Notes: a model not told the origin generated them from the sequence alone. Shown: positions 43,060 through 53,141, numbered from the stretch's first letter. The stretch: 64,000 nucleotides of DNA from Phycisphaerae bacterium (GCA_050115495.1 JASFQK010000022.1:35860-99859); one strand, 5' to 3'. Numbers and translations are program-made.

Positions 43060-44247
43060 ATGCTGCTGCCCCTGGCGAAACGGCTGCTGACCGAGGTGGA
43101 TCGGCGCGCCCTGTGGAAGTTCATGTGGAACTTCGGCTTCCACGGGATGCGGGCCGTGCAGCGCTTCAAACGCCGGCTGCGCAGCGGCGTGCACTTCCCG
43201 CCGTTTCTCTACGTTTCGATCATCAATTCGTGCCAGCTTCGTTGCCAGGGCTGCTGGGTGGACGTCGCGGCCCCGCGGCGGATGATCACACTGGAGGAGA
43301 TGAACCGGCTCATCGACGAGGCGAAGCGCTACGGCAACCGCTTCTTCGGTTTGCTCGGCGGTGAGCCCCTGCTGCACCCGCAGTTGTTCGAAATCCTCGA
43401 AGCCCATCCGGACTGCTACTTCCAGCTCTTCACCAACGGGCACTTGCTCACCGATGAGGCGGCGCGGCGGCTGCGGGCGGTCGGCAACACGACACCGCTC
43501 ATCAGCATCGAAGGGTCGGAGGCGGCCAGCGATGAGCGGCGGGGCCAGTCGCACGTCCTGGAGCGGACGCTGGCGGGGCTGGAGAACTGCCGCCGGCACA
43601 AGCTGATTCTCGGCGTGGCCACGAGCGTGTGTCAGACGAACTTCGACCTGGTCAGCGAGACGTGGCTCCGGCGGCTGATCGAACTGGGCGTGCACTACGT
43701 GTGGTTCTACACGTACCGGGTCATCGGCCCGCGGCCGACGCCGGAGCTGGCCCTCCGCCGGGAGCAAATGCGGCAGCTTCGCGAGTTCATCGTAACCATG
43801 CGGAGCCGGCTGCCGATCGGCATCGTCGACGCCTACTGGGACGCTGACGGCGTAGCCCTCTGCCCGATGGCGGCGGGGATCAGCCACCACATCGGCCCCG
43901 GCGGGCACATCGAGCCCTGCCCCATCATCCAGTTCGCCACGGAGACGATCCGCGACGGTGGCCTCTATGATCTGCTGATCCGATCGGAATTTGTTCGTGC
44001 CTGCCGGGAAACCGCCGCAGCCACGACGCGCGGGTGTATCCTGTTGGAGAGGCCGGACCTGGTGCAGGAGCTGGTTCGCACCCACGGTGCGGCGGACACG
44101 ACCCAACGGGCCACCGGCCTGGCGGAGCTTGAGGCCATGGTGCCGCGCGAGAGCCAGCACGACCCCGAGTTCCAGGTGCCGGAGCGGCACTGGCTGTACC
44201 GGTTCGCCAAGCGACATTGGTTCTTCGGATTCGGTGCATACGGATGA
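43060..44247 (+). CDS. Radical SAM protein with SPASM/twitch-like C-terminus
   Basis: CQLRCQGC, LGGEP, FTNG, ISIEG; C-terminal CPMA...IEPCP...GC. Confidence 0.9.
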   Translation: MLLPLAKRLLTEVDRRALWKFMWNFGFHGMRAVQRFKRRLRSGVHFPPFLYVSIINSCQLRCQGCWVDVAAPRRMITLEEMNRLIDEAKRYGNRFFGLLGGEPLLHPQLFEILEAHPDCYFQLFTNGHLLTDEAARRLRAVGNTTPLISIEGSEAASDERRGQSHVLERTLAGLENCRRHKLILGVATSVCQTNFDLVSETWLRRLIELGVHYVWFYTYRVIGPRPTPELALRREQMRQLREFIVTMRSRLPIGIVDAYWDADGVALCPMAAGISHHIGPGGHIEPCPIIQFATETIRDGGLYDLLIRSEFVRACRETAAATTRGCILLERPDLVQELVRTHGAADTTQRATGLAELEAMVPRESQHDPEFQVPERHWLYRFAKRHWFFGFGAYG

Positions 44248-45971
44248 CACACGACGCGATGTCGATGCAGAATTCCGATACGCCGCCGGCGGCGCCGCCG
44301 AAGTCGGTGCGCCCGCCGCAGGAGGGCATCCCGCCGACGTATGCGGAGCGCGAGCGGATCCGGCTGGCGGCGCGTGAATACGTGGCGTCCGCGCGTCCGG
44401 TGCCGCCGCTGTCGCTGACCGAGCTGCACGAGCACGCGGCGCGACTCGGTGCCCAGCTCGGACTGGACGGGCAATATCGCGACTTCACATCGGTGCTGCT
44501 CAACAGCGAAGTGTGGCGCGACACGCTGGCGGGCGTTCCGTATTCGCGGCGTCTACTGCTATTGCCCAAGTGCCTGCGGTCGGCGGACGCGTGCCCGGCG
44601 TCGTTTGACGAGCTCGGGCTCGTGTGCCAGGGCTGCGGGCGCTGCGCGATCGACGAGTTGCAGACCGAGGCCGAGCAGCTTGGGTATGCCGTCCTCTGCG
44701 CCGAGGGGTCGGCCCGGGTGATCGAGCTCATCCAGACCGGGGGCATCGACGCGATCATCGGCATCAGTTGCCTGTCCGTGCTGGAGAAGGCGTTTCCGCA
44801 CATGCAATCCGCCGGCATTCCGGGCGTCGCCATCCCCCTGCTACAGGACGGGTGCCACGACACGTCGCTCGACATGGCGTGGGCGTGGGATGCGATTCAC
44901 CTGACCAGCGATGCACGCTCGTGCCCGCTGGACCTCGACGGCCTGCGACAGACGGTGGACGCGTGGTTTGAGCCGGCGGCGCTCGAGGCCATCCTCGGCC
45001 CGGTGCAATCGCCGACGGAACGCATCGCCCGCGACTGGCTGGCCGGCGCCGGGAAGCGCTGGCGGCCGTTCCTTACGGCGTGCACGTGTGCCGCGCTGGC
45101 GCCGGACCCGCGGGCCCCGCTGTCGGAGGCGGTGCAGCGGATCGCCGTTGCGGTGGAGTGCTTCCACAAGGCGTCGCTGGTGCACGACGACATCGAGGAC
45201 GGCGACGAGTTGCGCTATGGGGCCCCGACGTTGCACGCGGAACACGGTGTGCCGGTGGCGTTGAACGTGGGCGATCTGCTCATCGGCGAGGGCTATCGCC
45301 AGCTCGTGGGCATCGATGTTCCGCCGGCCGTGCGGACGGAAATAGTGCGCATCGCCGCCGCGGGACAGTGCGTTTCCTGTCTCGGGCAGGGCGCCGAGTT
45401 GCATTGGGCCCGCAACGGTGGGCCGCTGTCGTCACAGGCGGTGCTCGACATCTTCCGGCAGAAGACGGCCCCGGCCTTCGAGGTGGCACTGCGGCTCGGC
45501 GCGGCGTACGCGGGTGCAACGCCGGACGTGGCGGAGGTTCTGGCACAATGCAGCGCCGCATTGGGCATCGCCTATCAGATTCGCGACGACCTGGATGACT
45601 TGCAGCCGGGGCACGCTCCGGACGATCTGACCGGGCGGCGGCTGTCGTTGCCGCTGGCCGTGGCGTACGAGTGCACAACCGGCGACGCGCACACCGCGGT
45701 GGAGGCGGCGTGGCAGCGGACCGAGGGACTGGGCGACCGGCTGCGGCAGATCATTGCGGAGTCCGGTGCGGAGGCGCATTGCCGGGAGCTGCTCGATTCG
45801 TATCGGGAGGAAGCGCTCCGCCATCTGGCGAAGTTGGAGAATCCCGATCTGCGGAACCTGCTGCGCCGCGTGGTGGCCAGGATCTACGGGGTCGATTTCA
45901 GGGGCTGGTGTCGTGAGTCTGCGTCTGGACATGCTGCAAACCGCGCGGCGGGCACCGCATCTGCTGGGTGA
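44244..45971 (+). CDS. DUF116-like Cys-rich domain fused to a trans-polyprenyl diphosphate synthase
   Basis: LPKCLR..C....CQGCGRC..ISC..GC; GKRWRP, HDDIED (first Asp-rich motif), GQG.EL, KT, YQIRDDLDD (second Asp-rich motif); ATGA overlap. Confidence 0.87.
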   Translation: MTHDAMSMQNSDTPPAAPPKSVRPPQEGIPPTYAERERIRLAAREYVASARPVPPLSLTELHEHAARLGAQLGLDGQYRDFTSVLLNSEVWRDTLAGVPYSRRLLLLPKCLRSADACPASFDELGLVCQGCGRCAIDELQTEAEQLGYAVLCAEGSARVIELIQTGGIDAIIGISCLSVLEKAFPHMQSAGIPGVAIPLLQDGCHDTSLDMAWAWDAIHLTSDARSCPLDLDGLRQTVDAWFEPAALEAILGPVQSPTERIARDWLAGAGKRWRPFLTACTCAALAPDPRAPLSEAVQRIAVAVECFHKASLVHDDIEDGDELRYGAPTLHAEHGVPVALNVGDLLIGEGYRQLVGIDVPPAVRTEIVRIAAAGQCVSCLGQGAELHWARNGGPLSSQAVLDIFRQKTAPAFEVALRLGAAYAGATPDVAEVLAQCSAALGIAYQIRDDLDDLQPGHAPDDLTGRRLSLPLAVAYECTTGDAHTAVEAAWQRTEGLGDRLRQIIAESGAEAHCRELLDSYREEALRHLAKLENPDLRNLLRRVVARIYGVDFRGWCRESASGHAANRAAGTASAG

Positions 45972-46797
45972 GTCGACCGACCTCGTCCGTCGTTTCCTGC
46001 ATAGCCAGATGAACGCGGATGGTGGGTTTCGCGATCGCGCCGGCCAGAGCGACGTCTACTACACCGTGTTCGGCTTGCAGGGGCTGATCGCACTGGACGC
46101 TGACGTGCCACTGGGGCCTGTCGCGGAGTATCTCGCTTCGCTGGGTTCGGGGACGCAATTCGACCTGGTTCACGCCGCGAGTCTGGCACGTTGTTGGGCC
46201 GCCCTGCCGCCAGCGGAGAAAGCCGGGATGCCGCGTGCCGAGCTTCTGCGACATCTGGCCACGTTTCGCAGCGACGACGGGGCGTACGACATCGCGACAG
46301 GCAGCACGCACGGCACGCTGTACGGCTGCTTCCTCGCACTGGGGGCGTACGAAGACCTCGACGCCGACCTGCCCGAGCCCGCGGCGTTGGTGACTTGTGT
46401 CGAACGACTGCGGACGGATGACGGCGGCTACGCCAACGGCACGGACCTGCCCGTGGGACTGGTGCCAACCACGGCGGCGGCGGTTGCGCTGCTGCGAAAC
46501 CTCGGCCGGCCTGTACCGCCGGAAGTCGGGACGTGGCTCCTGGCACAGCATTGTGCCGGCGGCGGGTTTCTGGCCACGCCCGCGGCGCCGATGCCGGATC
46601 TGCTGTCGACCGCCACGGCGCTCTTCGCACTGCACAGCCTGCACGCCGATCTCGCAGCCGTGCGCGAACCGTGCCTCGACTTCATCAACAGCTTGTGGAC
46701 CAATCGCGGGGCGTTCTGCGGCAACTGGGCCGACGACGTCGTGGACTGCGAGTACACGTACTACGCCCTTCTGGCACTGGGATGTCTGAGTCAGTGA
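45913..46797 (+). CDS. Prenyltransferase/squalene-oxidase-repeat protein (single alpha/alpha barrel)
   Basis: Repeats QMNADGGF, SDDGAY, TDDGGY, AGGGF; SDVYYT, DCEYTYY; no DxDD motif. Confidence 0.8.
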   Translation: MSLRLDMLQTARRAPHLLGESTDLVRRFLHSQMNADGGFRDRAGQSDVYYTVFGLQGLIALDADVPLGPVAEYLASLGSGTQFDLVHAASLARCWAALPPAEKAGMPRAELLRHLATFRSDDGAYDIATGSTHGTLYGCFLALGAYEDLDADLPEPAALVTCVERLRTDDGGYANGTDLPVGLVPTTAAAVALLRNLGRPVPPEVGTWLLAQHCAGGGFLATPAAPMPDLLSTATALFALHSLHADLAAVREPCLDFINSLWTNRGAFCGNWADDVVDCEYTYYALLALGCLSQ

Positions 46798-48641
46798 CGA
46801 TTCGCAGTACGGATACCGACGCCGTGGCCGAGACGCTGGCTAACGCCCGCCAACGTCTGCTCGCGGCCCGCACGGACGCGGGTCATTGGGAGGGCCTGTT
46901 ATCCAGCAGTGCCCTTTCGACCGCGACGGCGTCGTTTGCGCTGTGGTTGTATGCCGAGCGTTCGTCTGGCGCACGCGACGGGCCGAATCGCGCCGAATGT
47001 CGCCGGCTGGCGCAGGCTGGCGCGCACTGGCTGGCCGGTCACCAGAATGCCGACGGCGGCTGGGGCGACACGCCGGAGAGTCCGAGCAACATCAGCACGA
47101 CGGTGCTGGGCTGGGCGGCATTGCACGCCATCGACGGTGATGAGGCCGTGCAGAGCGCTCGCGAGAAGGCCGACGCCTGTGTGGACCGTGCCGCCGGCGG
47201 ACGTGACGCAGACACGCTGACGCGGGCGATCGTCCACCGCTACGGCGACGACCGGACGTTCTCGGCACCGATTCTCACGATGTGCGCGTTGGCCGGCCGG
47301 CTGGGCCCGGATGCGCAGGCTTGGCGACACGTGGCGCAATTGCCATTCGAGTTGGCGGCGTTGCCGCAATCGTGGTTTCAGTTCCTGCGCCTGCCAGTCG
47401 TCAGCTACGCCCTGCCCGCGCTGATCGCCATCGGTCGCGTGCGTCACCATTGCCGGCCGACGCGCAATCCGCTGCTGCGCGCGTTGCGCTGGGCCGCGCG
47501 TCGCCGAACGGAACGAGTCCTGGAACGAATTCAGCCACCCGGCGGCGGGTTCCTCGAAGCGACGCCACTGACGAGCTTCGTGCTCATGAGCCTGGCCGGC
47601 AGCGGGCAGGCGGATGGCGCAGTTGCGACCCGCGCGGCGCAGTTCCTGGCGCGGTCCGTGCGGGCCGATGGTAGTTGGCCGATTGATACGAACCTGGCGA
47701 CGTGGGTCACGACACTCTCCATCCAAGCGCTCGCGACTGCCGGAGCACTGTCCGAGTCGCTGAGCGACGGCGAGCGGCATTCCATCAAAACGTGGCTGCT
47801 CGGACAGCAGTACCGGCAGCGGCACCTCTACACGGGCGCCGATCCCGGCGGCTGGGCCTGGACGGATCTGCCCGGCGGCGTGCCCGACGCGGACGACACG
47901 GCGGGAGCACTCATCGCGCTGCATCAGTTCGGCGCCGAGGACGCCGCAGATGCCGCCGCTGACGGAATCCGCTGGCTGCTGGGTCTTCAGAATCGTGATG
48001 GGGGCATCCCGACGTTTTGCCGAGGCTGGGGCCGCCTGCCGTTTGACCGCAGCACGCCGGAGATCACGGCCCACGCTCTGCTGGCGTGGAGTCTGTGGCA
48101 CGACTCGTTGCCTGCAACACTGGCGAGCAAGGTGCACTACGCCACGCGCCGAGCCCTGGCGTACCTCCGCCGACAACAACGACTGGACGGGGCATGGCTA
48201 CCGCTCTGGTTCGGCAATCAGCATGCGCCAAACGAGCGGAATCCGACGTACGGCACGGCACGCGTCGTGCTGGCGCTGAACCGCTGCCGAACGCACGTGT
48301 CGACGACACGCGAGCCCGTCACCCGCGGCGTTCGCTGGCTGCTCACGGCGCAGAACGCCGATGGCGGCTGGGGCGGCGCACCGGGCGTGCCATCATCCAT
48401 TGAAGAGACCGGCCAGGCCGTGCAGGCGCTGGTGGCGGCGCACGCCGCGGCGCAGAATGAGGTCCTCCCTGCGATCGACCGCGGCACACACTGGCTCGCC
48501 CAGACCACGCACGCCGGACGAGATTTCCCCGCCGCTCCCATCGGCCTGTACTTCGCCAACCTGTGGTATGCCGAGCGGCTCTACCCCCAGATCGCCACCG
48601 TCGCCGCTTTGGGCTTGAAAAAGACTGCCTCGTGCGCATAA
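46782..48641 (+). CDS. Squalene-hopene-cyclase-like class II terpene cyclase
   Basis: GHWEG, QW repeats (QNADGGWG, ADGSW, QNRDGG, LDGAW, QNADGGWG), GGWAW...PDADDT (DxDD), YGT, LYFANLWY. Confidence 0.87.
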   Translation: MSESVTIRSTDTDAVAETLANARQRLLAARTDAGHWEGLLSSSALSTATASFALWLYAERSSGARDGPNRAECRRLAQAGAHWLAGHQNADGGWGDTPESPSNISTTVLGWAALHAIDGDEAVQSAREKADACVDRAAGGRDADTLTRAIVHRYGDDRTFSAPILTMCALAGRLGPDAQAWRHVAQLPFELAALPQSWFQFLRLPVVSYALPALIAIGRVRHHCRPTRNPLLRALRWAARRRTERVLERIQPPGGGFLEATPLTSFVLMSLAGSGQADGAVATRAAQFLARSVRADGSWPIDTNLATWVTTLSIQALATAGALSESLSDGERHSIKTWLLGQQYRQRHLYTGADPGGWAWTDLPGGVPDADDTAGALIALHQFGAEDAADAAADGIRWLLGLQNRDGGIPTFCRGWGRLPFDRSTPEITAHALLAWSLWHDSLPATLASKVHYATRRALAYLRRQQRLDGAWLPLWFGNQHAPNERNPTYGTARVVLALNRCRTHVSTTREPVTRGVRWLLTAQNADGGWGGAPGVPSSIEETGQAVQALVAAHAAAQNEVLPAIDRGTHWLAQTTHAGRDFPAAPIGLYFANLWYAERLYPQIATVAALGLKKTASCA

Positions 48642-48860
48642 TGGAGTGCGGTTGCGGAACCGATGACTCGTTTGCAGAAAGGAGGTATCCCGTGCGTTTC
48701 GTTGCATTGACGCTTCTCGTGGAGCCTTTCTGCGCAGTCAGCCGCGGCTGATTCCCGCCTGATCGCTGGCTGATCGCAGCCAGGCTCCTCCCTGTTGGTT
48801 TGTGATTCGTGCACACGACCAGGGACGACGCTGCGCGCGTCGCCCGAGACGAGGAGCGAT
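48615..48860 (+). promoter_or_regulatory. Promoter and attenuator-like leader of the rbfA-like/rtcB pair
   Basis: TTGAAA 48615-20, 16 bp, CATAAT 48637-42; GCTCCTC (48784-90) complements the SD GAGGAGC (48851-57); competing pairs GGAGCCT/AGGCTCC and GCAGAAAGG/CCTTTCTGC. Confidence 0.6.
48692..48751 (+). CDS. Putative 19-aa leader peptide MRFVALTLLVEPFCAVSRG
   Basis: Near-perfect SD AAAGGAGGT (48678-86), 5 nt before GTG 48692; TGA at 48749-51. Confidence 0.6.
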   Translation: MRFVALTLLVEPFCAVSRG

Positions 48861-49280
48861 ATGCCTTCGCACAAGCGAAAGAAGACGGACCTGCGCGCGC
48901 TGTGCGCGCAACTGCATCCAGATGACGGCGTCGACCCGCGCGAGGACAGGCGGCGCGACGCCGAGTACGAGAGGAAGCCGGACCGTAAGATCTGGCAGCT
49001 CTGCAAGCAAGTGGAACAGACGCTGCAACTGGCCTTCGGAGCCCTGCCGCAAGCCGCAGCGCTCGCTGGCGTAACCGTGTCGGAAGTAACGCCGGCGCCG
49101 AACGCCGGGCGCTTGCGGGTGGTGATCGCCGTGCCCGTTCCCGACCGCGCGGCCCAGGTGCTCGCGATCGTCCGGCAGCACGCCCGCCAACTGCGTGCCG
49201 AAGTCGCCGCGGCCATCACACGGCGTCGTGCACCGGAGCTCACGTTCGACGTGCTGGTGGAAGGAGGTGACCGTGGCTGA
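48861..49280 (+). CDS. Divergent ribosome-binding factor A (RbfA)-like protein
   Basis: GAGGAG SD; RKIWQLCKQV helix, VTVSEV.PAPNAGRLRV, LRAEVAAAITRRRAPELTF (RbfA-type R..PEL.F); not in an infB-truB context. Confidence 0.72.
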   Translation: MPSHKRKKTDLRALCAQLHPDDGVDPREDRRRDAEYERKPDRKIWQLCKQVEQTLQLAFGALPQAAALAGVTVSEVTPAPNAGRLRVVIAVPVPDRAAQVLAIVRQHARQLRAEVAAAITRRRAPELTFDVLVEGGDRG

Positions 49281-50409
49281 GTGTGCCATGATGAAGATGT
49301 GGGTAACACAGCCGCCCGAGCCGGCGGTTCGCCAGACGCTGGACCGACTCGCCCGCGCTCCCGACGTCGTGCACGTGGCGGTTATGCCTGACGTCCACCT
49401 CGCAGCCGGCGTCAGCAACGGTGTTGTCGTCGCCACCCGGCAGCTGGTCTATCCGGCGGCTGTCGGGGGCGACATTGGCTGTGGATTCGGCGTTGTCGCG
49501 CTCAACGGGAGCGCAGCCACACTGAAACGCCGGCCCGCGGCGGAAGCCGTGCTGGACGCCCTGCCGACCGCGGCACCGGTCATGCGTCACAAGCGGCGAG
49601 ATGGTCTTCCGGAGTATCCGGACGACCTCGCCGTCGACCGGCTCAGCGCCCCTGCCCTGGCCGCCCAGGCCGCCAGTGAGGGACGGTTGGAGCTGGGCAC
49701 GCTCGGGCGCGGAAATCACTTCCTGGAGTTGCAGGAGGACGATGAGGGTCGGTTGTGGCTGATGGTGCACAGCGGCTCGCGTGCCATGGGACAACACATC
49801 GCCAACCATCACACACGATCCGCGACATTCGCCGGCGGCGGTCTCGCCTGGCTCGACGTGGAGACGGACGCCGGACAAGCGTACCTCCGCGACGCCGGCT
49901 GGGCCCGTGCCTACGCCGCCGAGAGTCGGCGACGCATGCTCGTAGCGGTCGCCGAAGTGGTCTCCGACATCCTGGGCATCGAGCCGAACTGGGAGACGTT
50001 CCTGAACACCGACCACAATCACGTTCAGTCGGAGCAGCACGGCGACGCGACGCTGTGGGTGCACCGGAAAGGCGCCAACGTGGCGCAGGATGGCGCAGAC
50101 AACGTCATTCCGGGATCGATGGCGACACCCACGTACCACGTCGCCGGCCGCGGTGAGCCTTCGGCGCTGGCGTCGAGCTCGCATGGTGCCGGCCGCCGAC
50201 TTAGCCGTGGCGCAGCCCGCGCCCAGGTCCGCCGAAAGGACCTGGCTCGGCAGCTCGCGGACGTCTGGATCGATCCGCGCACCGCGGGGCGGCTGGTGGA
50301 CGAAGCGCCGGTGGCCTACAAGGACATCGACGCCGTTATGCGTGCCCAGCGTGATCTCGTTCGCATCGTTCGCCGACTGCGCCCGGTGCTCTGCTACAAG
50401 GGTGCCTGA
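49273..50409 (+). CDS. rtcB: RtcB-family RNA 3'-phosphate/5'-OH ligase (compact form)
   Basis: MPDVH, VGGDIGCG, GTLGRGNHFLE, HSGSR, HNH, HRKGA, IPGSM, SHGAGR, DEAPVAYK; AAGGAGGT SD; overlaps the upstream gene. Confidence 0.94.
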   Translation: MAECAMMKMWVTQPPEPAVRQTLDRLARAPDVVHVAVMPDVHLAAGVSNGVVVATRQLVYPAAVGGDIGCGFGVVALNGSAATLKRRPAAEAVLDALPTAAPVMRHKRRDGLPEYPDDLAVDRLSAPALAAQAASEGRLELGTLGRGNHFLELQEDDEGRLWLMVHSGSRAMGQHIANHHTRSATFAGGGLAWLDVETDAGQAYLRDAGWARAYAAESRRRMLVAVAEVVSDILGIEPNWETFLNTDHNHVQSEQHGDATLWVHRKGANVAQDGADNVIPGSMATPTYHVAGRGEPSALASSSHGAGRRLSRGAARAQVRRKDLARQLADVWIDPRTAGRLVDEAPVAYKDIDAVMRAQRDLVRIVRRLRPVLCYKGA

Positions 50410-50443
50410 ACCTGACCCGCCCACTCGCCAAGCTACAGCGCCC

Positions 50444-50488
50444 CCTCGAACCGGCGGCTCGACATGTTGGTCGAGCCGCCGATCGAGG
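50444..50488 (+). terminator. Strong GC-rich hairpin after rtcB (terminator or stabiliser; no U tract)
   Basis: CGGCGGCTCGAC (50452-63) / GTCGAGCCGCCG (50470-81), extended by CCTCGA/TCGAGG. Confidence 0.45.
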
Positions 50489-50772
50489 CGGCGACTGCGC
50501 CCAATAACGAAGCCACCCGACCGGCGCCGGTCACTGGCACTCGCCATCGCCGCCTCCAAGCCAGCGGCACGACATTCATGTAACTCATTTCCTAAGAGCA
50601 ACTTCCGCGCGGATCCCACTCAGTCGGTCGGAACTCTAGCGGCGTCGGCGGTTTCCGCCACGACGACCGCGACATCCTCGTCGCCCCCGCCGCCCAGGTT
50701 CATTTCTAGTTTCTGTTTGCGTTTCTGAAATTCTGATTGAAATCGACTCCGGGACTCGATACCCTGGCATCC

Positions 50773-52053
50773 ATGGCCACGTCCAAGACACACGACAAGC
50801 CCCCACACGCGTTCGAAGAGGACGCCCTCCGGGCGCTCCAGAACATTCGCGAGGCCTTCGCCGCCCTGCTGGAGAGCCTGCCACAGCGTGTCGGCCGGGC
50901 CCATGAGGTCGCCAAGGTCCTTGGTATCCACCGCAAGCTCGGCTGGCAGATCGCCAAGCTCGTATACGAGTCCGATCCGCTCGCCGCCGCCCAACACGTT
51001 CCCGGGGCGGCGTCGATTCGGCGGTTCCTCGACGCCGTCGCGAAGCAGAAGGTTAACGCCGGGCTGATCGAATCCGCCCGTGCGGCCGTGGAGAGCTTCG
51101 AGCGTCTGGTCGAGGTCCATGCCGGTGACCGCGAGTCGCTGAACCTCATGCTCACGGGCTGGGGCGGCGAAGCCGCCCGCAAGGCGGACCTCGTGCAGCG
51201 CCGGGCCGCCTTCTCGGCCGGCAGCTACATCTGGGGCGTGCAGGCGAAGACGTCACTGTCCACCGTCTTCCTGTCGCCGTCCACGACGCGAGAGGACTTC
51301 TTCGACCTGGCACACATCATGGGATTCGTGGAGCTTCGCCGGATGCGCTCGCAGGTGTGCTGGCCGCTCCGCTATTCGAAGCACTTCGCGGACGACGCCA
51401 GCGAGCTGGAACAGCCGTTGCGCGAGCCGCTGGACGATGCGCCCGTCGCCGCCGACGAGCCGCCGCTGCTGCGCCGCTTCTGCTCGCAACCCGTGCCGGA
51501 AACGCGGCGGCGCGTCTTCGACGGCGGCTGGGTGGTCGACGAGATCACGCCGGGGCCCGTCGGCAACACGGGGGCCATCGACTGCTTCGTAGGCGAGTTC
51601 TGCCGCGCGGTCATGTGCAAGTATCGAACGGAGCAGAGCTGGACGTGGGCGCTCGGGCGCGTGGTTCGCGCACCTTGTGAGGTGCTGATCCTCGATCAGT
51701 TCATACACGAGGACGTGTTCGGCTCCATACAGCCGCAGTTGCACATGTACCGCGACCTCATCGGCGCTCCGCCGACGGGCGCCACATCCCGGCAGAAAGA
51801 GGACGAAATGCCGGTCTTCGAAACGGTGCGGCACCTCGGCCAGGGGCTCTCCGGAATCCGCATGCCCGACGTGCATCGGTACGCGGAGATGGTGAGCTAC
51901 GTGTTTGAGCGATTCGGCTGGGACCCGAACCGCTTCCACGTGTATCGGGCGCGCGTGGAGTATCCGCCCCTGCCCACGATGGTGTGCATGGAGCACCCGC
52001 TGCCCGAACGGCCGCAGCCGGCCCGCGGCACAGACGAGTCTAACACTCCATGA
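50773..52053 (+). CDS. Hypothetical cytoplasmic protein with a possible N-terminal helix-turn-helix
   Basis: Long ORF with coding-like codon bias; AHEVAKVLGIHRKLGWQI is HTH-like; AT-rich upstream segment. Confidence 0.6.
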   Translation: MATSKTHDKPPHAFEEDALRALQNIREAFAALLESLPQRVGRAHEVAKVLGIHRKLGWQIAKLVYESDPLAAAQHVPGAASIRRFLDAVAKQKVNAGLIESARAAVESFERLVEVHAGDRESLNLMLTGWGGEAARKADLVQRRAAFSAGSYIWGVQAKTSLSTVFLSPSTTREDFFDLAHIMGFVELRRMRSQVCWPLRYSKHFADDASELEQPLREPLDDAPVAADEPPLLRRFCSQPVPETRRRVFDGGWVVDEITPGPVGNTGAIDCFVGEFCRAVMCKYRTEQSWTWALGRVVRAPCEVLILDQFIHEDVFGSIQPQLHMYRDLIGAPPTGATSRQKEDEMPVFETVRHLGQGLSGIRMPDVHRYAEMVSYVFERFGWDPNRFHVYRARVEYPPLPTMVCMEHPLPERPQPARGTDESNTP

Positions 52054-52148
52054 CACCGGGCGTGTCGCTGGAGTTGTTCCGTTGGCGATCCACGGCGTGC
52101 GTGGGCGCGACACAGTGGAATCGGAGGCATAGACGAGGAGGAACGGAG

Positions 52149-53141
52149 ATGCGGTGCAGATTCCTGACGGTCCTGGCCGTGGGAGCTTGTGTCATCGGAG
52201 CAGAGGCCGCCGTCGTTGTCGACACGGTCACCGTCGGAAACCCCGGCAACCTACCCGACACGCGATACTCCCGAACCTACGGCGCCGTGGACTACGTGTA
52301 TCAAATGGCCAAGTTCGAGATCACGGCCGGGCAGTATACCGAGTTTCTCAATGCCATCGCGGCGACGGATACGTACGGCCTGTACGACCCGGGCTGGTGG
52401 GCATCCGATCAGGGCTGCAAGATCGAACGTCTCGGCGAGGAGGGCAGCTACACGTACCAGGTGGCGTCGGATTGGGCCGAGCGCCCGGTCAGCGCCGTGA
52501 GTTGGGGCGATGTCGTGCGGTTCGCCAACTGGATGCACAACGGCCAGCCGACCGGCGCGCAGGATCTAACCACGACCGAAGACGGCTCGTACTTCGTCAA
52601 CGGCGCAATAGACAACGCCGCGCTTCAGGCCGTTGAGCGACAACCGGACGCCACGTGGGTTCTTCCCACCGAGGATGAGTGGCACAAGTCGGCGTTTCAC
52701 ATGAACGACGGTCAGACGGGGAACTACTACGTCTACGCCACCAGCAGCGACGACGCGCCGGCCAATACGATAGTCGATCCGGATCCCGGCAACAGCGCCA
52801 ACTACCACACGGATGTCTACACGCTGGGCGCTCCCTACTGGCGTACGGTGGTTGGTGAGTTCGAAAACAGTGCCAGCCCGTACGGCACGTTCGACCAGGG
52901 TGGCAACGTCTCCGAATGGACCGAGACGAAGTACCATGCGGGCTTCCGCATCTTCCGGGGCGGCGCATACATCAGCGTTGAGGCCCTCCTGCGAGCGTCA
53001 TACTGGGATAGCCACTCCCCGATTCAGTACGCTCTGAGCAACGGCTTCCGCCTGGCACTCGTGCCGGAGCCGGCGCCGTTCAGCCTGCTGGCGATCGGTG
53101 GTCTCCTGGCCGTCGGCTGGAGAAGACACCGGTTGAGCTGA
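52149..53141 (+). CDS. Secreted FGE-sulfatase (SUMF1-like) domain protein with PEP-CTERM sorting signal
   Basis: Signal peptide; VTVGNPGN, FEIT..QY..FLN, LPTEDEW, SPYGTFDQGGNVSEW, GFRL; VPEP + TM + RRHR. Confidence 0.88.
   Translation: MRCRFLTVLAVGACVIGAEAAVVVDTVTVGNPGNLPDTRYSRTYGAVDYVYQMAKFEITAGQYTEFLNAIAATDTYGLYDPGWWASDQGCKIERLGEEGSYTYQVASDWAERPVSAVSWGDVVRFANWMHNGQPTGAQDLTTTEDGSYFVNGAIDNAALQAVERQPDATWVLPTEDEWHKSAFHMNDGQTGNYYVYATSSDDAPANTIVDPDPGNSANYHTDVYTLGAPYWRTVVGEFENSASPYGTFDQGGNVSEWTETKYHAGFRIFRGGAYISVEALLRASYWDSHSPIQYALSNGFRLALVPEPAPFSLLAIGGLLAVGWRRHRLS

Follow-up and report, generated by a model that had tools for sequence, protein, structure and literature searches.

A conserved upstream open reading frame and mutually exclusive pairings in the leader of an rbfA-like/rtcB operon of Planctomycetota: a candidate ribosome-sensing attenuator

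We analysed a window of 64,000 nucleotides from a Phycisphaerae bacterium (GCA_050115495.1 JASFQK010000022.1:35860-99859), by which we mean the whole stretch of DNA, concentrating on the leader of 220 bases that separates a squalene-hopene-cyclase-like gene, ending at 48641, from an rbfA-like gene that is followed by a gene for an RtcB-family RNA ligase. Coordinates are positions in the whole stretch, and the parts of the leader and the two genes downstream of it lie on the plus strand of a genome that is of the Phycisphaerae type, with 66.7% GC. An initial annotation, made from the sequence alone, had proposed that this leader contains a hidden 19-codon open reading frame (ORF) and mutually exclusive hairpins, and that it controls the two downstream genes by ribosome-mediated translational attenuation, in the manner of the ermC and cat leaders. 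Direct reading of 48300-49200 recovered each of the sequence features that it had listed. The leader is preceded by a -35 box, TTGAAA (48615-20), separated by 16 nt from a -10 box, CATAAT (48637-42), which overlaps the stop codon of the cyclase-like gene. The Shine-Dalgarno sequence (SD) of the upstream ORF (uORF), AAAGGAGGT (48678-86), stands 5 nt ahead of a GTG at 48692, and the 19 codons that follow end at TGA 48749-51 (48692..48751) and encode the peptide MRFVALTLLVEPFCAVSRG. Four complementarities had been noted in addition: between GGAGCCT (48721-27) and AGGCTCC (48782-88); between GCAGAAAGG (48674-82) and CCTTTCTGC (48725-33), a 9-bp pairing over the SD of the uORF; between GCTCCTC (48784-90) and GAGGAGC (48851-57), respectively an anti-SD and the SD of the rbfA-like gene, which starts with the ATG at 48861; and between CCCTG (48790-94) and CAGGG (48820-24), as a stem enclosed by the latter pairing.

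The rbfA-like gene (48861..49280) encodes a protein of 139 amino acids that scores 26.3 bits against PF02033, below the cut-off of 34.7, and 20 bits against the NCBIfam RbfA model, which has a cut-off of 142. Since a canonical rbfA is present elsewhere in the same genome (contig C27; PF02033 91.4 bits), the window protein is a paralog. In its AlphaFold2 model (mean pLDDT, predicted local distance difference test, of 72.8), the secondary structure elements follow the alpha-beta-beta-alpha-alpha-beta order of RbfA, and the best 15 Foldseek matches in the PDB are all RbfA entries, the five best having target-normalised template-modelling scores (TM-scores) of 0.74-0.83. Based on this predicted structure, we call the protein a divergent RbfA-fold paralog. 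It has an N-terminal extension of about 40 residues (48861-48990, residues 1-43) that is not found in canonical RbfA, contains the motifs LRALCA, PDDGVNPR and RK..QLC along with two conserved cysteines, and is modelled with a pLDDT of about 50. The RtcB-family RNA ligase gene (49288..50409) probably starts at ATG 49288, 7 nt past the stop codon of the rbfA-like gene. Its product matches PF01139 with 272.4 bits (cut-off 27; E = 1.1e-80) and falls below the equivalog cut-offs of the NCBIfam RtcB subfamily models, including the PrfH-linked model TIGR03073 (141.9 bits, with a cut-off of 271.8).

To compare this leader with its counterparts, we collected rbfA-like loci from related genomes, where a match was obtained in 9 of 61, and from a sample of the phylum, where 109 of 401 genomes gave a match at E up to 0.001, hits to canonical RbfA included; 23 rbfA-like loci came from all species genomes and 51 from metagenomes. 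In each of the first nine loci, an SD-led ORF of 16-19 codons lies 150-330 nt upstream of the rbfA-like gene, with the SD weakened to AAAGGCGG in one case, and RtcB is encoded downstream. The upstream neighbours vary among these nine loci, so that the promoter, uORF, leader, rbfA-like gene and rtcB appear to move together as a unit. The uORF was also present in all non-redundant Phycisphaerae-type loci of the wider set. A strict test, in which an SD with six or more letters of AAGGAGG had to be followed after 3-10 nt by an ORF 12-30 codons long, all within 450 nt, recovered a uORF in 43 of 95 loci across the phylum; when applied to the reverse complements of these stretches, it recovered 2 of 95. 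Using a looser test, 60 loci had a uORF, of 15-21 codons in 53 and of exactly 18 or 19 codons in 36, whereas ORFs of 15-21 codons begin at only 16.3% of the 952 start codons that these leaders contain. A 3-nt insertion or deletion distinguishes uORFs of 18 codons from those of 19.

Both the promoter and the SD of the uORF stand out from their genomic background. The sigma-70-like promoter (48615..48642) is the sole match of this kind in 47500-50500, where shuffled sequences give 0.1, and 17 of 24 core orthologs have a promoter of this type with its end 40-54 nt ahead of the uORF start, compared with 0.9 expected from shuffles. The SD, described in the initial annotation as near-perfect, extends to AGAAAGGAGGT (= AGAAAGGAGGU; 48676..48686), which we denote SD1 and which is a perfect 11-nt complement of the 3' end of the 16S rRNA of the same genome (...ACCUCCUUUCU / ...GGAUCACCUCCUUUCU, contig C11). 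Among the 7047 long ORFs of this genome, a single one has a 16S complement of at least 11 nt upstream, 0.27% have one of at least 9 nt, and 436 are preceded by GGAGG. By comparison, 26 of the 60 uORFs have a complement of at least 9 nt and 18 have one of at least 11 nt, and the median at the rbfA-like gene's own site is 4 nt. Thus, the annotated promoter and the SD-led leader ORF are both borne out across orthologs.

The pattern of conservation within the uORF points to constraint on the RNA. Anchored at the start codon, which is located at SD-optimal spacing, the peptides of the core clade follow the pattern M-x3-A-x5-[EG]-P-x-C-A, with the proline, encoded by CCU, always at codon 12. Across codons 10-15 (CG GRG CCU NNC UGC GC), third positions hardly vary and are as conserved as the first and second ones, and what the distant clades encode at this site is another peptide, SSL or SLSL, which once more spells an SD complement; we conclude on these grounds that the conserved block is an RNA element. 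In the closest pair, L001 and L002, five of eight changed codons are synonymous; between L006 and L051, four of five are non-synonymous, and the N-terminal half varies freely. In both the core and the distant clades, the stop codon is located 15-21 nt past the core of the conserved block, so that a terminating ribosome would have just cleared it. We read this as a short ORF that is probably translated, the peptide itself not being the functional product. Two side observations concern the uORF. In one locus (L063:1003-1132), a one-base insertion in the conserved block (GGGGGCC for GGGGCC) shifts the frame of a uORF that starts with TTG, such that it ends four codons later at TAA, after 23 codons; this may be a true variant or an assembly error. 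Furthermore, the stretch around the uORF stop (GCGGCUGAUUCC / GCCGCGGCUGAUUCCCGCC; 48739-48757) resembles, by eye, the 3' region of 16S rRNA (GCGGCUGGAUCACC / CCUGCGGCUGGAUCACCUCC, contig C11), and GCUGAU around the stop codon is kept in the core clade; the likeness could be due to chance or could be a mimic of the rRNA site.

An RNAalifold consensus built on 12 leaders contains three helices: the SD and spacer of the uORF paired with uORF codons 10-13 (Stem I), a hairpin past the stop codon (Stem II), and another located just ahead of the downstream SD (Stem III). In the window, 48645-48870 folds at -96.5 kcal/mol, compared with -87.05 (standard deviation 4.7) for shuffled sequences (z = -2.0; 5 of 200 shuffles equal or better). 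The complementary parts of the leader can be described as four segments. Segment 1 comprises the SD1 core and the spacer to the start codon and forms the 5' strand of Stem I (GAGGU.UCCC, 48682..48691). Segment 2, hereafter X, consists of uORF codons 10-15 (GU GGAGCC UUU CUGCG, 48719..48734) and can pair with either segment 1 or segment 3. Segment 3, hereafter Y (48775..48790), contains CGCAG..GGCUCC (48775-88), which pairs with X, and GCUCCUC (48784-90), which complements the SD of the rbfA-like gene. Segment 4, hereafter Z (48851..48863), comprises that SD, GAGGAGC (48851-57), and the ATG at 48861. Stem II (CTGGCTG, ATCG, CAGCCAG; 48766..48783) shares its 3' strand with the pairing of X.

Stem I and the X:Y pairing are both conserved and both covary. 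For Stem I, 95.3% of cells pair across 24 orthologs, compared with 38-64% in slid controls, 11 cells are changed on both sides and none of 500 shuffles does as well; the sequences that were counted had also served to derive the structures, and shuffle counts here and below are not probabilities. The exact register proposed in the initial annotation (GCAGAAAGG, 48674..48682, with CCTTTCTGC, 48725-33), a perfect 9 bp in the window, pairs in only 77.8% of cells in these orthologs, with the middle two pairs mostly open as an internal loop and three cells changed on both sides; one leader, L064, bears the compensatory form GCGGAAAGG / CCUUUCCGC. Thus, sequestration of the uORF's SD by its own codons is conserved, but in a register shifted by a few bases. 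Stem II pairs in 86.4% of cells, and four of its seven pairs are changed on both sides. Because an alignment of all 24 sequences (A4) misplaces Y in seven insert-bearing leaders, the X:Y counts were taken from the remaining 17 of 24 (A5), and those for Stem I from all 24. In these 17 leaders, state A, defined as Stem I together with Stem II, pairs in 91.5% of cells, with 14 changed on both sides and none of 500 shuffles attaining this value. State B joins X to GGCUCC and the 3' strand of Stem II; it pairs in 93.1% of cells (slid controls 32-54%), with 9 changed on both sides, and again 0 of 500 shuffles are as good. The result for state B upholds the annotated AGGCTCC:GGAGCCT pairing. Alignment column 115, on the 3' side of Stem II, covaries with two partners, column 108 within Stem II (UA 10, CG 3, UG 3) and column 67 in X (UA 11, CG 3, UG 3), which argues that two mutually exclusive conformations are both under selection. 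The alignment of the distant clades (A6) was unusable for column counts of Stem I because the spacing between SD and start codon shifts the register.

The duplex of SD1 with the 16S tail is predicted at -19.2 kcal/mol in the window and at -19.0 on average over 24 leaders, and the isolated Stem I element at -21.4 and -23.3 kcal/mol, respectively; given this stability, an RNA thermometer is unlikely. The 5' part of SD1 lies outside Stem I in the consensus register and could for that reason act as a toehold for the 16S tail. The third helix, Stem III (GGGACGACGC, TGCGC, GCGTCGCCC; 48822..48845), located just 5' of the downstream SD, has a covariation score of 0.364, compared with 0.194 in shuffles, one of 500 of which reaches it. 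Its stem covaries, its loop (48832-48836; columns 207-213 of alignment A3) is almost invariantly UGCGC or CGCGC, and the motif CUGCGC occurs in X as well; the loop may be a protein-binding site. The CCCTG..CAGGG stem of the initial annotation is present in the window but is missing from both the consensus and the minimum-energy fold of the window; it is not conserved, and we rejected it. In two related leaders (L055:1260-1419 and L089:960-1119), three tandem copies of a CATCACCGGC-like unit lie between the uORF stop and Y; since this unit consists of the 5' strand of Stem II plus flanking sequence, several alternative Stem II hairpins are possible there.

The link between the switch and the downstream gene, the pairing of Y with Z, emerges from the comparison between clades. 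The distant clades carry other letters at the same places (SD1 AAGGAGGCCGAC, X GUCG-UCGA-GCCUG, Y CAGGCUCUCAC, Z GUGAGAG), and Y and Z change together across clades: CUCUCAC occurs with GUGAGAG, CUCUCGCU with AGCGAGAG, and GCUCCC with GGGAGC. To quantify this, Y was detected using a 12-nt core of X, as detection with a long X is noisy, and Z was permuted among 45 loci, leaving out 15 of 60 in which X:Y is weak (weaker than -9 kcal/mol). Native Y:Z duplexes had a mean energy of -10.88 kcal/mol, compared with -8.52 (standard deviation 0.36) upon permutation; 0 of 10000 permutations were as low, and in 35 of the 45 loci Y paired more favourably with its native Z than, on average, with Z sequences of other types. 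This cross-clade permutation alone supports Y:Z as a pairing selected at the family level.

The leader is closely tied to the rbfA-like/rtcB gene pair. Of 97 rbfA-like loci, 60 have RtcB downstream, and the uORF is present in 49 of 57 RtcB-linked loci compared with 5 of 29 without RtcB downstream, counts on which any test would be inflated by kinship. The 37 of 97 loci that lack a downstream RtcB belong to other Planctomycetota (L021, L025-L028, L031-L039, L058, L060, L061 and others), with the uORF missing in 24 of 29; in 20 such loci inspected, there was no consistent alternative partner 3' of the rbfA-like gene. A covariance model built on state A finds one strong copy in the genome of the window (133.9 bits). 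The next best match, of 18.6 bits (E = 0.23; L117, G000:C18:26301-26394), has no adjacent rbfA-like gene and is probably noise. The model matches 9 of 101 related genomes, and all five loci that were checked adjoin an rbfA-like gene. A cmscan of 47500-50500 against Rfam 15 at E up to 10 gave six weak matches, none in 48642-48860 and none near the gathering score, and a literature search, which did not extend to supplements, brought up no description of this leader or of an RbfA-RtcB operon.

Taken together, conservation at the level of sequence extends to the promoter, the SD, the frame and length of the uORF, two alternative pairings, the cross-clade co-change of Y and Z, and a strict link to the rbfA-like/rtcB genes. 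With a conserved uORF, mutually exclusive covarying pairings and cross-clade co-change of Y and Z, the leader has the architecture of a four-segment attenuator of the ermC type. The interpretation that we favour, with a probability of roughly 0.55, is that it acts in cis as a ribosome-sensing translational attenuator of the rbfA-like/rtcB operon. We infer that the uORF is translated, that access to Z is gated and in which direction the switch responds. A transcript starting at the sigma-70-type promoter would carry a uORF of 18-19 codons and four complementary segments: the SD and spacer of the uORF (1), uORF codons 10-15 (2, X), GGCUCC with the adjoining pyrimidine tract (3, Y), and the SD of the rbfA-like gene (4, Z). 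In state A, with 1:2 paired and 3:4 possible, both ribosome-binding sites would be closed; in state B, 2 would pair with 3. Stem I would form first during transcription, closing the site of the uORF and leaving Y free to close Z. A 30S subunit could then grip the single-stranded 5' part of the long SD via its 16S 3' tail and open Stem I. As long as the SD, start codon or first codons hold a ribosome, X would be free for Y, so that the anti-SD would be drawn off Z, whereas a ribosome that quickly crosses X would return Y to Z. Slow or blocked passage from initiation to elongation, or slow or blocked early elongation, would thus switch the operon on; possible triggers include damaged ribosomes, cleaved or scarce tRNAs, and inhibitors.

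A more specific version of this mechanism is tentative, and we regard it as doubtful: the leader would sense whether the 16S 3' end is intact or mature and would control a repair module for the 3' minor domain of the 30S subunit. Proteins of the RbfA family bind the 30S subunit beside the 16S 3' end. The 11-12 nt of 16S complement would serve as the toehold, such that only 30S subunits with a free, intact 3' tail could open Stem I; the dwell time of the 30S subunit before elongation would set how long the downstream site stays open; and the RbfA paralog and RtcB would act on damaged or immature 30S subunits.

Several results weigh against the attenuator interpretation, above all those of folding calculations. 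We placed ribosome-sized masks at the initiation site and at nine positions along the uORF and computed equilibrium folds for 24 leaders. The masks left the mean accessibility of Z at 0.38-0.43, without a consistent change; folding with leader codons masked, the check suggested in the initial annotation, thus did not consistently open the downstream SD across orthologs. The SD core of Z was mostly paired throughout, with a mean unpaired fraction of 0.22 without a mask, 0.26 with the initiation mask, 0.27 and 0.23 with masks at codons 5 and 12, and 0.25 and 0.24 with states A and B forced. Z was less accessible in A than in B in 7 of 17 leaders (p = 0.49), and over a wider window of Z, state A was even slightly more open than state B (0.46 versus 0.36), the opposite of what the model predicts. 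For the leader under study, the SD core of Z had an unpaired fraction of 0.00-0.16 across the modelled states. There alone, masking codons 3-13 raised the accessibility of the wider Z window from 0.24 to 0.44-0.51, because of a lineage-specific helix with Z: in the minimum-energy fold, uORF codons 6-9 (ACGCUUCUCG, 48709..48719) form an outer helix around X:Y with 48849-59 (CGAGGAGCGAU). Pairing of codons 2-9 with Z was rejected as a general mechanism, being limited to the window and a few relatives (mean z -0.02 in 24 orthologs). Y:Z did form unforced in the window once the annotated 9-bp register over the SD (I') and Stem II were imposed. Thus, the folding calculations do not reproduce the proposed gate; such predictions are unreliable for GC-rich RNAs of 200-400 nt and ignore kinetics.

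Sequence comparison also yields points on the opposing side. Within the core clade, Y and Z are complementary in 81% of cells (12 sequences) but without covariation, and 306 of 500 shuffles reach this value; the annotated GCTCCTC:GAGGAGC pairing is therefore backed by the cross-clade permutation and not by changes among close relatives. The best leader partner of Z was no better than that of shuffled Z (mean z +0.25; 0 of 24 below -2), a control that is uninformative because purine-rich shuffles still pair with pyrimidine tracts. In the distant clades, pairing energies relative to shuffles are weak, with a mean z of -1.12 for SD1:X and -0.44 for X with the middle segment. Variation in the uORF lacks three-base periodicity, the summed entropies at codon positions 1, 2 and 3 being 19.8, 18.1 and 17.8. 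Finally, since the sequences are related and not independent, the shuffle and permutation counts overstate significance. A look for sequencing runs returned three, all of them DNA from wetland metagenomes, and none of RNA. The interpretation given in the initial annotation is accordingly supported in part: its ermC/cat-like architecture, in which a promoter precedes a short, SD-led ORF and pairings exclude one another, holds in the comparison of orthologs, upstream of which the conserved uORFs and covarying stems that it had suggested looking for are found.

Other explanations have to be weighed against the same evidence. The switch could work with the opposite sign, as a sensor of ribosome capacity: plentiful 30S subunits with an intact 16S tail would load the uORF, and ribosomes crossing X would keep Y free to block Z, whereas a scarcity of active 30S subunits would allow the untranslated leader to relax into state B and the operon to be translated. 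In its favour, most core leaders are thermodynamically more stable in state B: subtracting the ensemble energy of A from that of B gives a negative value in 11 of 17, with an average of about -3.3 kcal/mol, and in the window the two energies are -93.0 (A) and -99.8 (B). The extreme SD also suits a sensor of the 16S 3' tail. We nevertheless consider this explanation unlikely: Stem I forms first and is so stable that an untranslated leader should be trapped in state A with both sites closed, the Z of the distant clades, GUGAGAG, is not SD-like, and Z was predicted to be no less accessible with the codon-12 masks (P12) lying over X. It is likewise improbable that the leader is a bistable RNA flipped by a factor acting in trans, through autoregulation by the RbfA-like protein or RtcB or through a small ligand, with the uORF being secondary or a helper. 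The conservation of codons 10-15 at the RNA level would fit such a factor, as would the near-invariant UGCGC loop of Stem III adjoining Z, the likeness of the uORF-stop stretch to the 16S 3' region, and the absence of an effect of ribosome masks on predicted Z accessibility. A regulator of this type would not account for a start codon at SD-optimal spacing, for an ORF length that is tightly held across clades with differing peptides, or for an SD1 that is longer than Stem I needs and matches the 16S tail; nor was there a match in Rfam or an evident conserved, pocket-like multi-helix junction.

A different output, premature transcription termination under the control of uORF translation, either Rho-dependent or at a non-canonical terminator, would make the leader resemble that of PA5471.1/armZ. 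This is the closest functional precedent, and transcription attenuation is what the portion of the account drawn on here proposes for it (PMC12057347); similarly, in the part of the toiL study considered here, Rho termination follows when topAI is translationally repressed (PMC12121999). We found 0 terminator-like sites in 47500-50500, where 1.3 are expected from shuffles, and no U tract after Stem II or Stem III in the window sequence; an intrinsic terminator was thus rejected, and the leader past the uORF is highly structured and hence a poor substrate for Rho, making this output quite unlikely. Least probable of all, and in our view very much so, is a functional 19-residue peptide with the motif [EG]-P-x-C-A. 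The motif is kept at residues 11-15 in 18 core sequences, and the synonymous changes between L001 and L002 would be expected of a selected peptide. The fixed third positions within the motif, the SSL or SLSL of the distant clades, which restores the SD complement and not the peptide, and the freedom of the N-terminal half, seen between L006 and L051, speak against it, and we rejected a functional micropeptide on these grounds.

The attenuator that we propose can be set beside known systems. In the ermC leader, a short SD-led ORF (ermCL) precedes segments that pair either as 1:2 and 3:4 or as 2:3, segment 4 is the SD of the regulated gene, there is no terminator, and holding a ribosome on segment 1 would be expected to release the downstream SD. 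The present leader has the four-segment logic and the SD-led leader ORF in common with ermC, likewise without a terminator. It differs in that segment 1 is the SD and spacer of the leader ORF instead of leader codons, so that the uORF's own ribosome-binding site is sequestered too, and in that segment 2 lies inside the uORF. Moreover, unlike in ermC, there is no evident conserved stalling peptide in the first nine codons, and the regulated genes encode an RbfA paralog and RtcB instead of a resistance methylase.

The toiL uORF of E. coli, in the sections of the report that we draw on, is a general sensor of translation stress for topAI-yjhQ, in which stalls at the start codon, among others, open the topAI ribosome-binding site (PMC12121999). 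It shares with our leader a uORF and a leader structure, predicted in our case, over the downstream ribosome-binding site, but ends in Rho-dependent termination inside topAI, and an extreme SD with a self-sequestering Stem I is not described for toiL in those sections (PMC12121999). In Pseudomonas aeruginosa, the PA5471.1 leader peptide controls armZ (PA5471, called RtcB-like) and PA5470, and transcription attenuation with terminators is proposed in the same partial source as above (PMC12057347). The likeness lies in a short leader peptide ahead of an RtcB-family gene and in an induction that is tied, for armZ, to stalled or impaired ribosomes; as far as that source goes, the systems differ in the terminators, of which we found none in 47500-50500, in the partner gene, a release-factor homologue there and an RbfA paralog here, and in the phylum (PMC12057347). 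Work on RtcB2-PrfH and on the rejoining by RtcB of the MazF-cut 16S 3' end indicates, in the excerpts considered, that RtcB is capable of repairing 16S rRNA in the vicinity of the 3' end. As in the RtcB2-PrfH system described in those excerpts, RtcB is encoded here in an operon with a predicted ribosome-binding protein, but this partner has an RbfA fold and is not a release-factor homologue, and the RtcB falls below the TIGR03073 cut-off, as noted above.

The wider neighbourhood offers some further observations. Upstream of the leader, a same-strand cluster of three isoprenoid genes (44217-48641), with ORFs that seem to overlap, encodes a DUF116-polyprenyl synthetase fusion, a prenyltransferase-like alpha-alpha toroid protein and the squalene-hopene-cyclase-like protein. 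On the 3' side of rtcB lie a gene for a 438-residue protein without a Pfam match (50737-52053) and one for an FGE-sulfatase-domain protein with a PEP-CTERM tail (52050-53141).

To our knowledge, it is largely unknown how bacteria that lack the RtcR activator time the production of RtcB. A conserved uORF switch would tie an RtcB operon to the status of the ribosome, and would do so in a phylum that rarely uses SD sequences. The design is unusual in that the extra-long SD of the uORF itself forms one arm of the switch. We found no Rfam family or paper that matches the leader, and, at about 220 nt, it is a compact element for studying how SD strength, binding-site structure and early elongation are read out. 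The RbfA paralog, so far unstudied, is a likely partner of RtcB in ribosome repair. If the leader does sense the 16S end, Planctomycetota would possess an analogue of RtcB2-PrfH that is assembled from other parts and responds to ribosome damage independently of RtcR.

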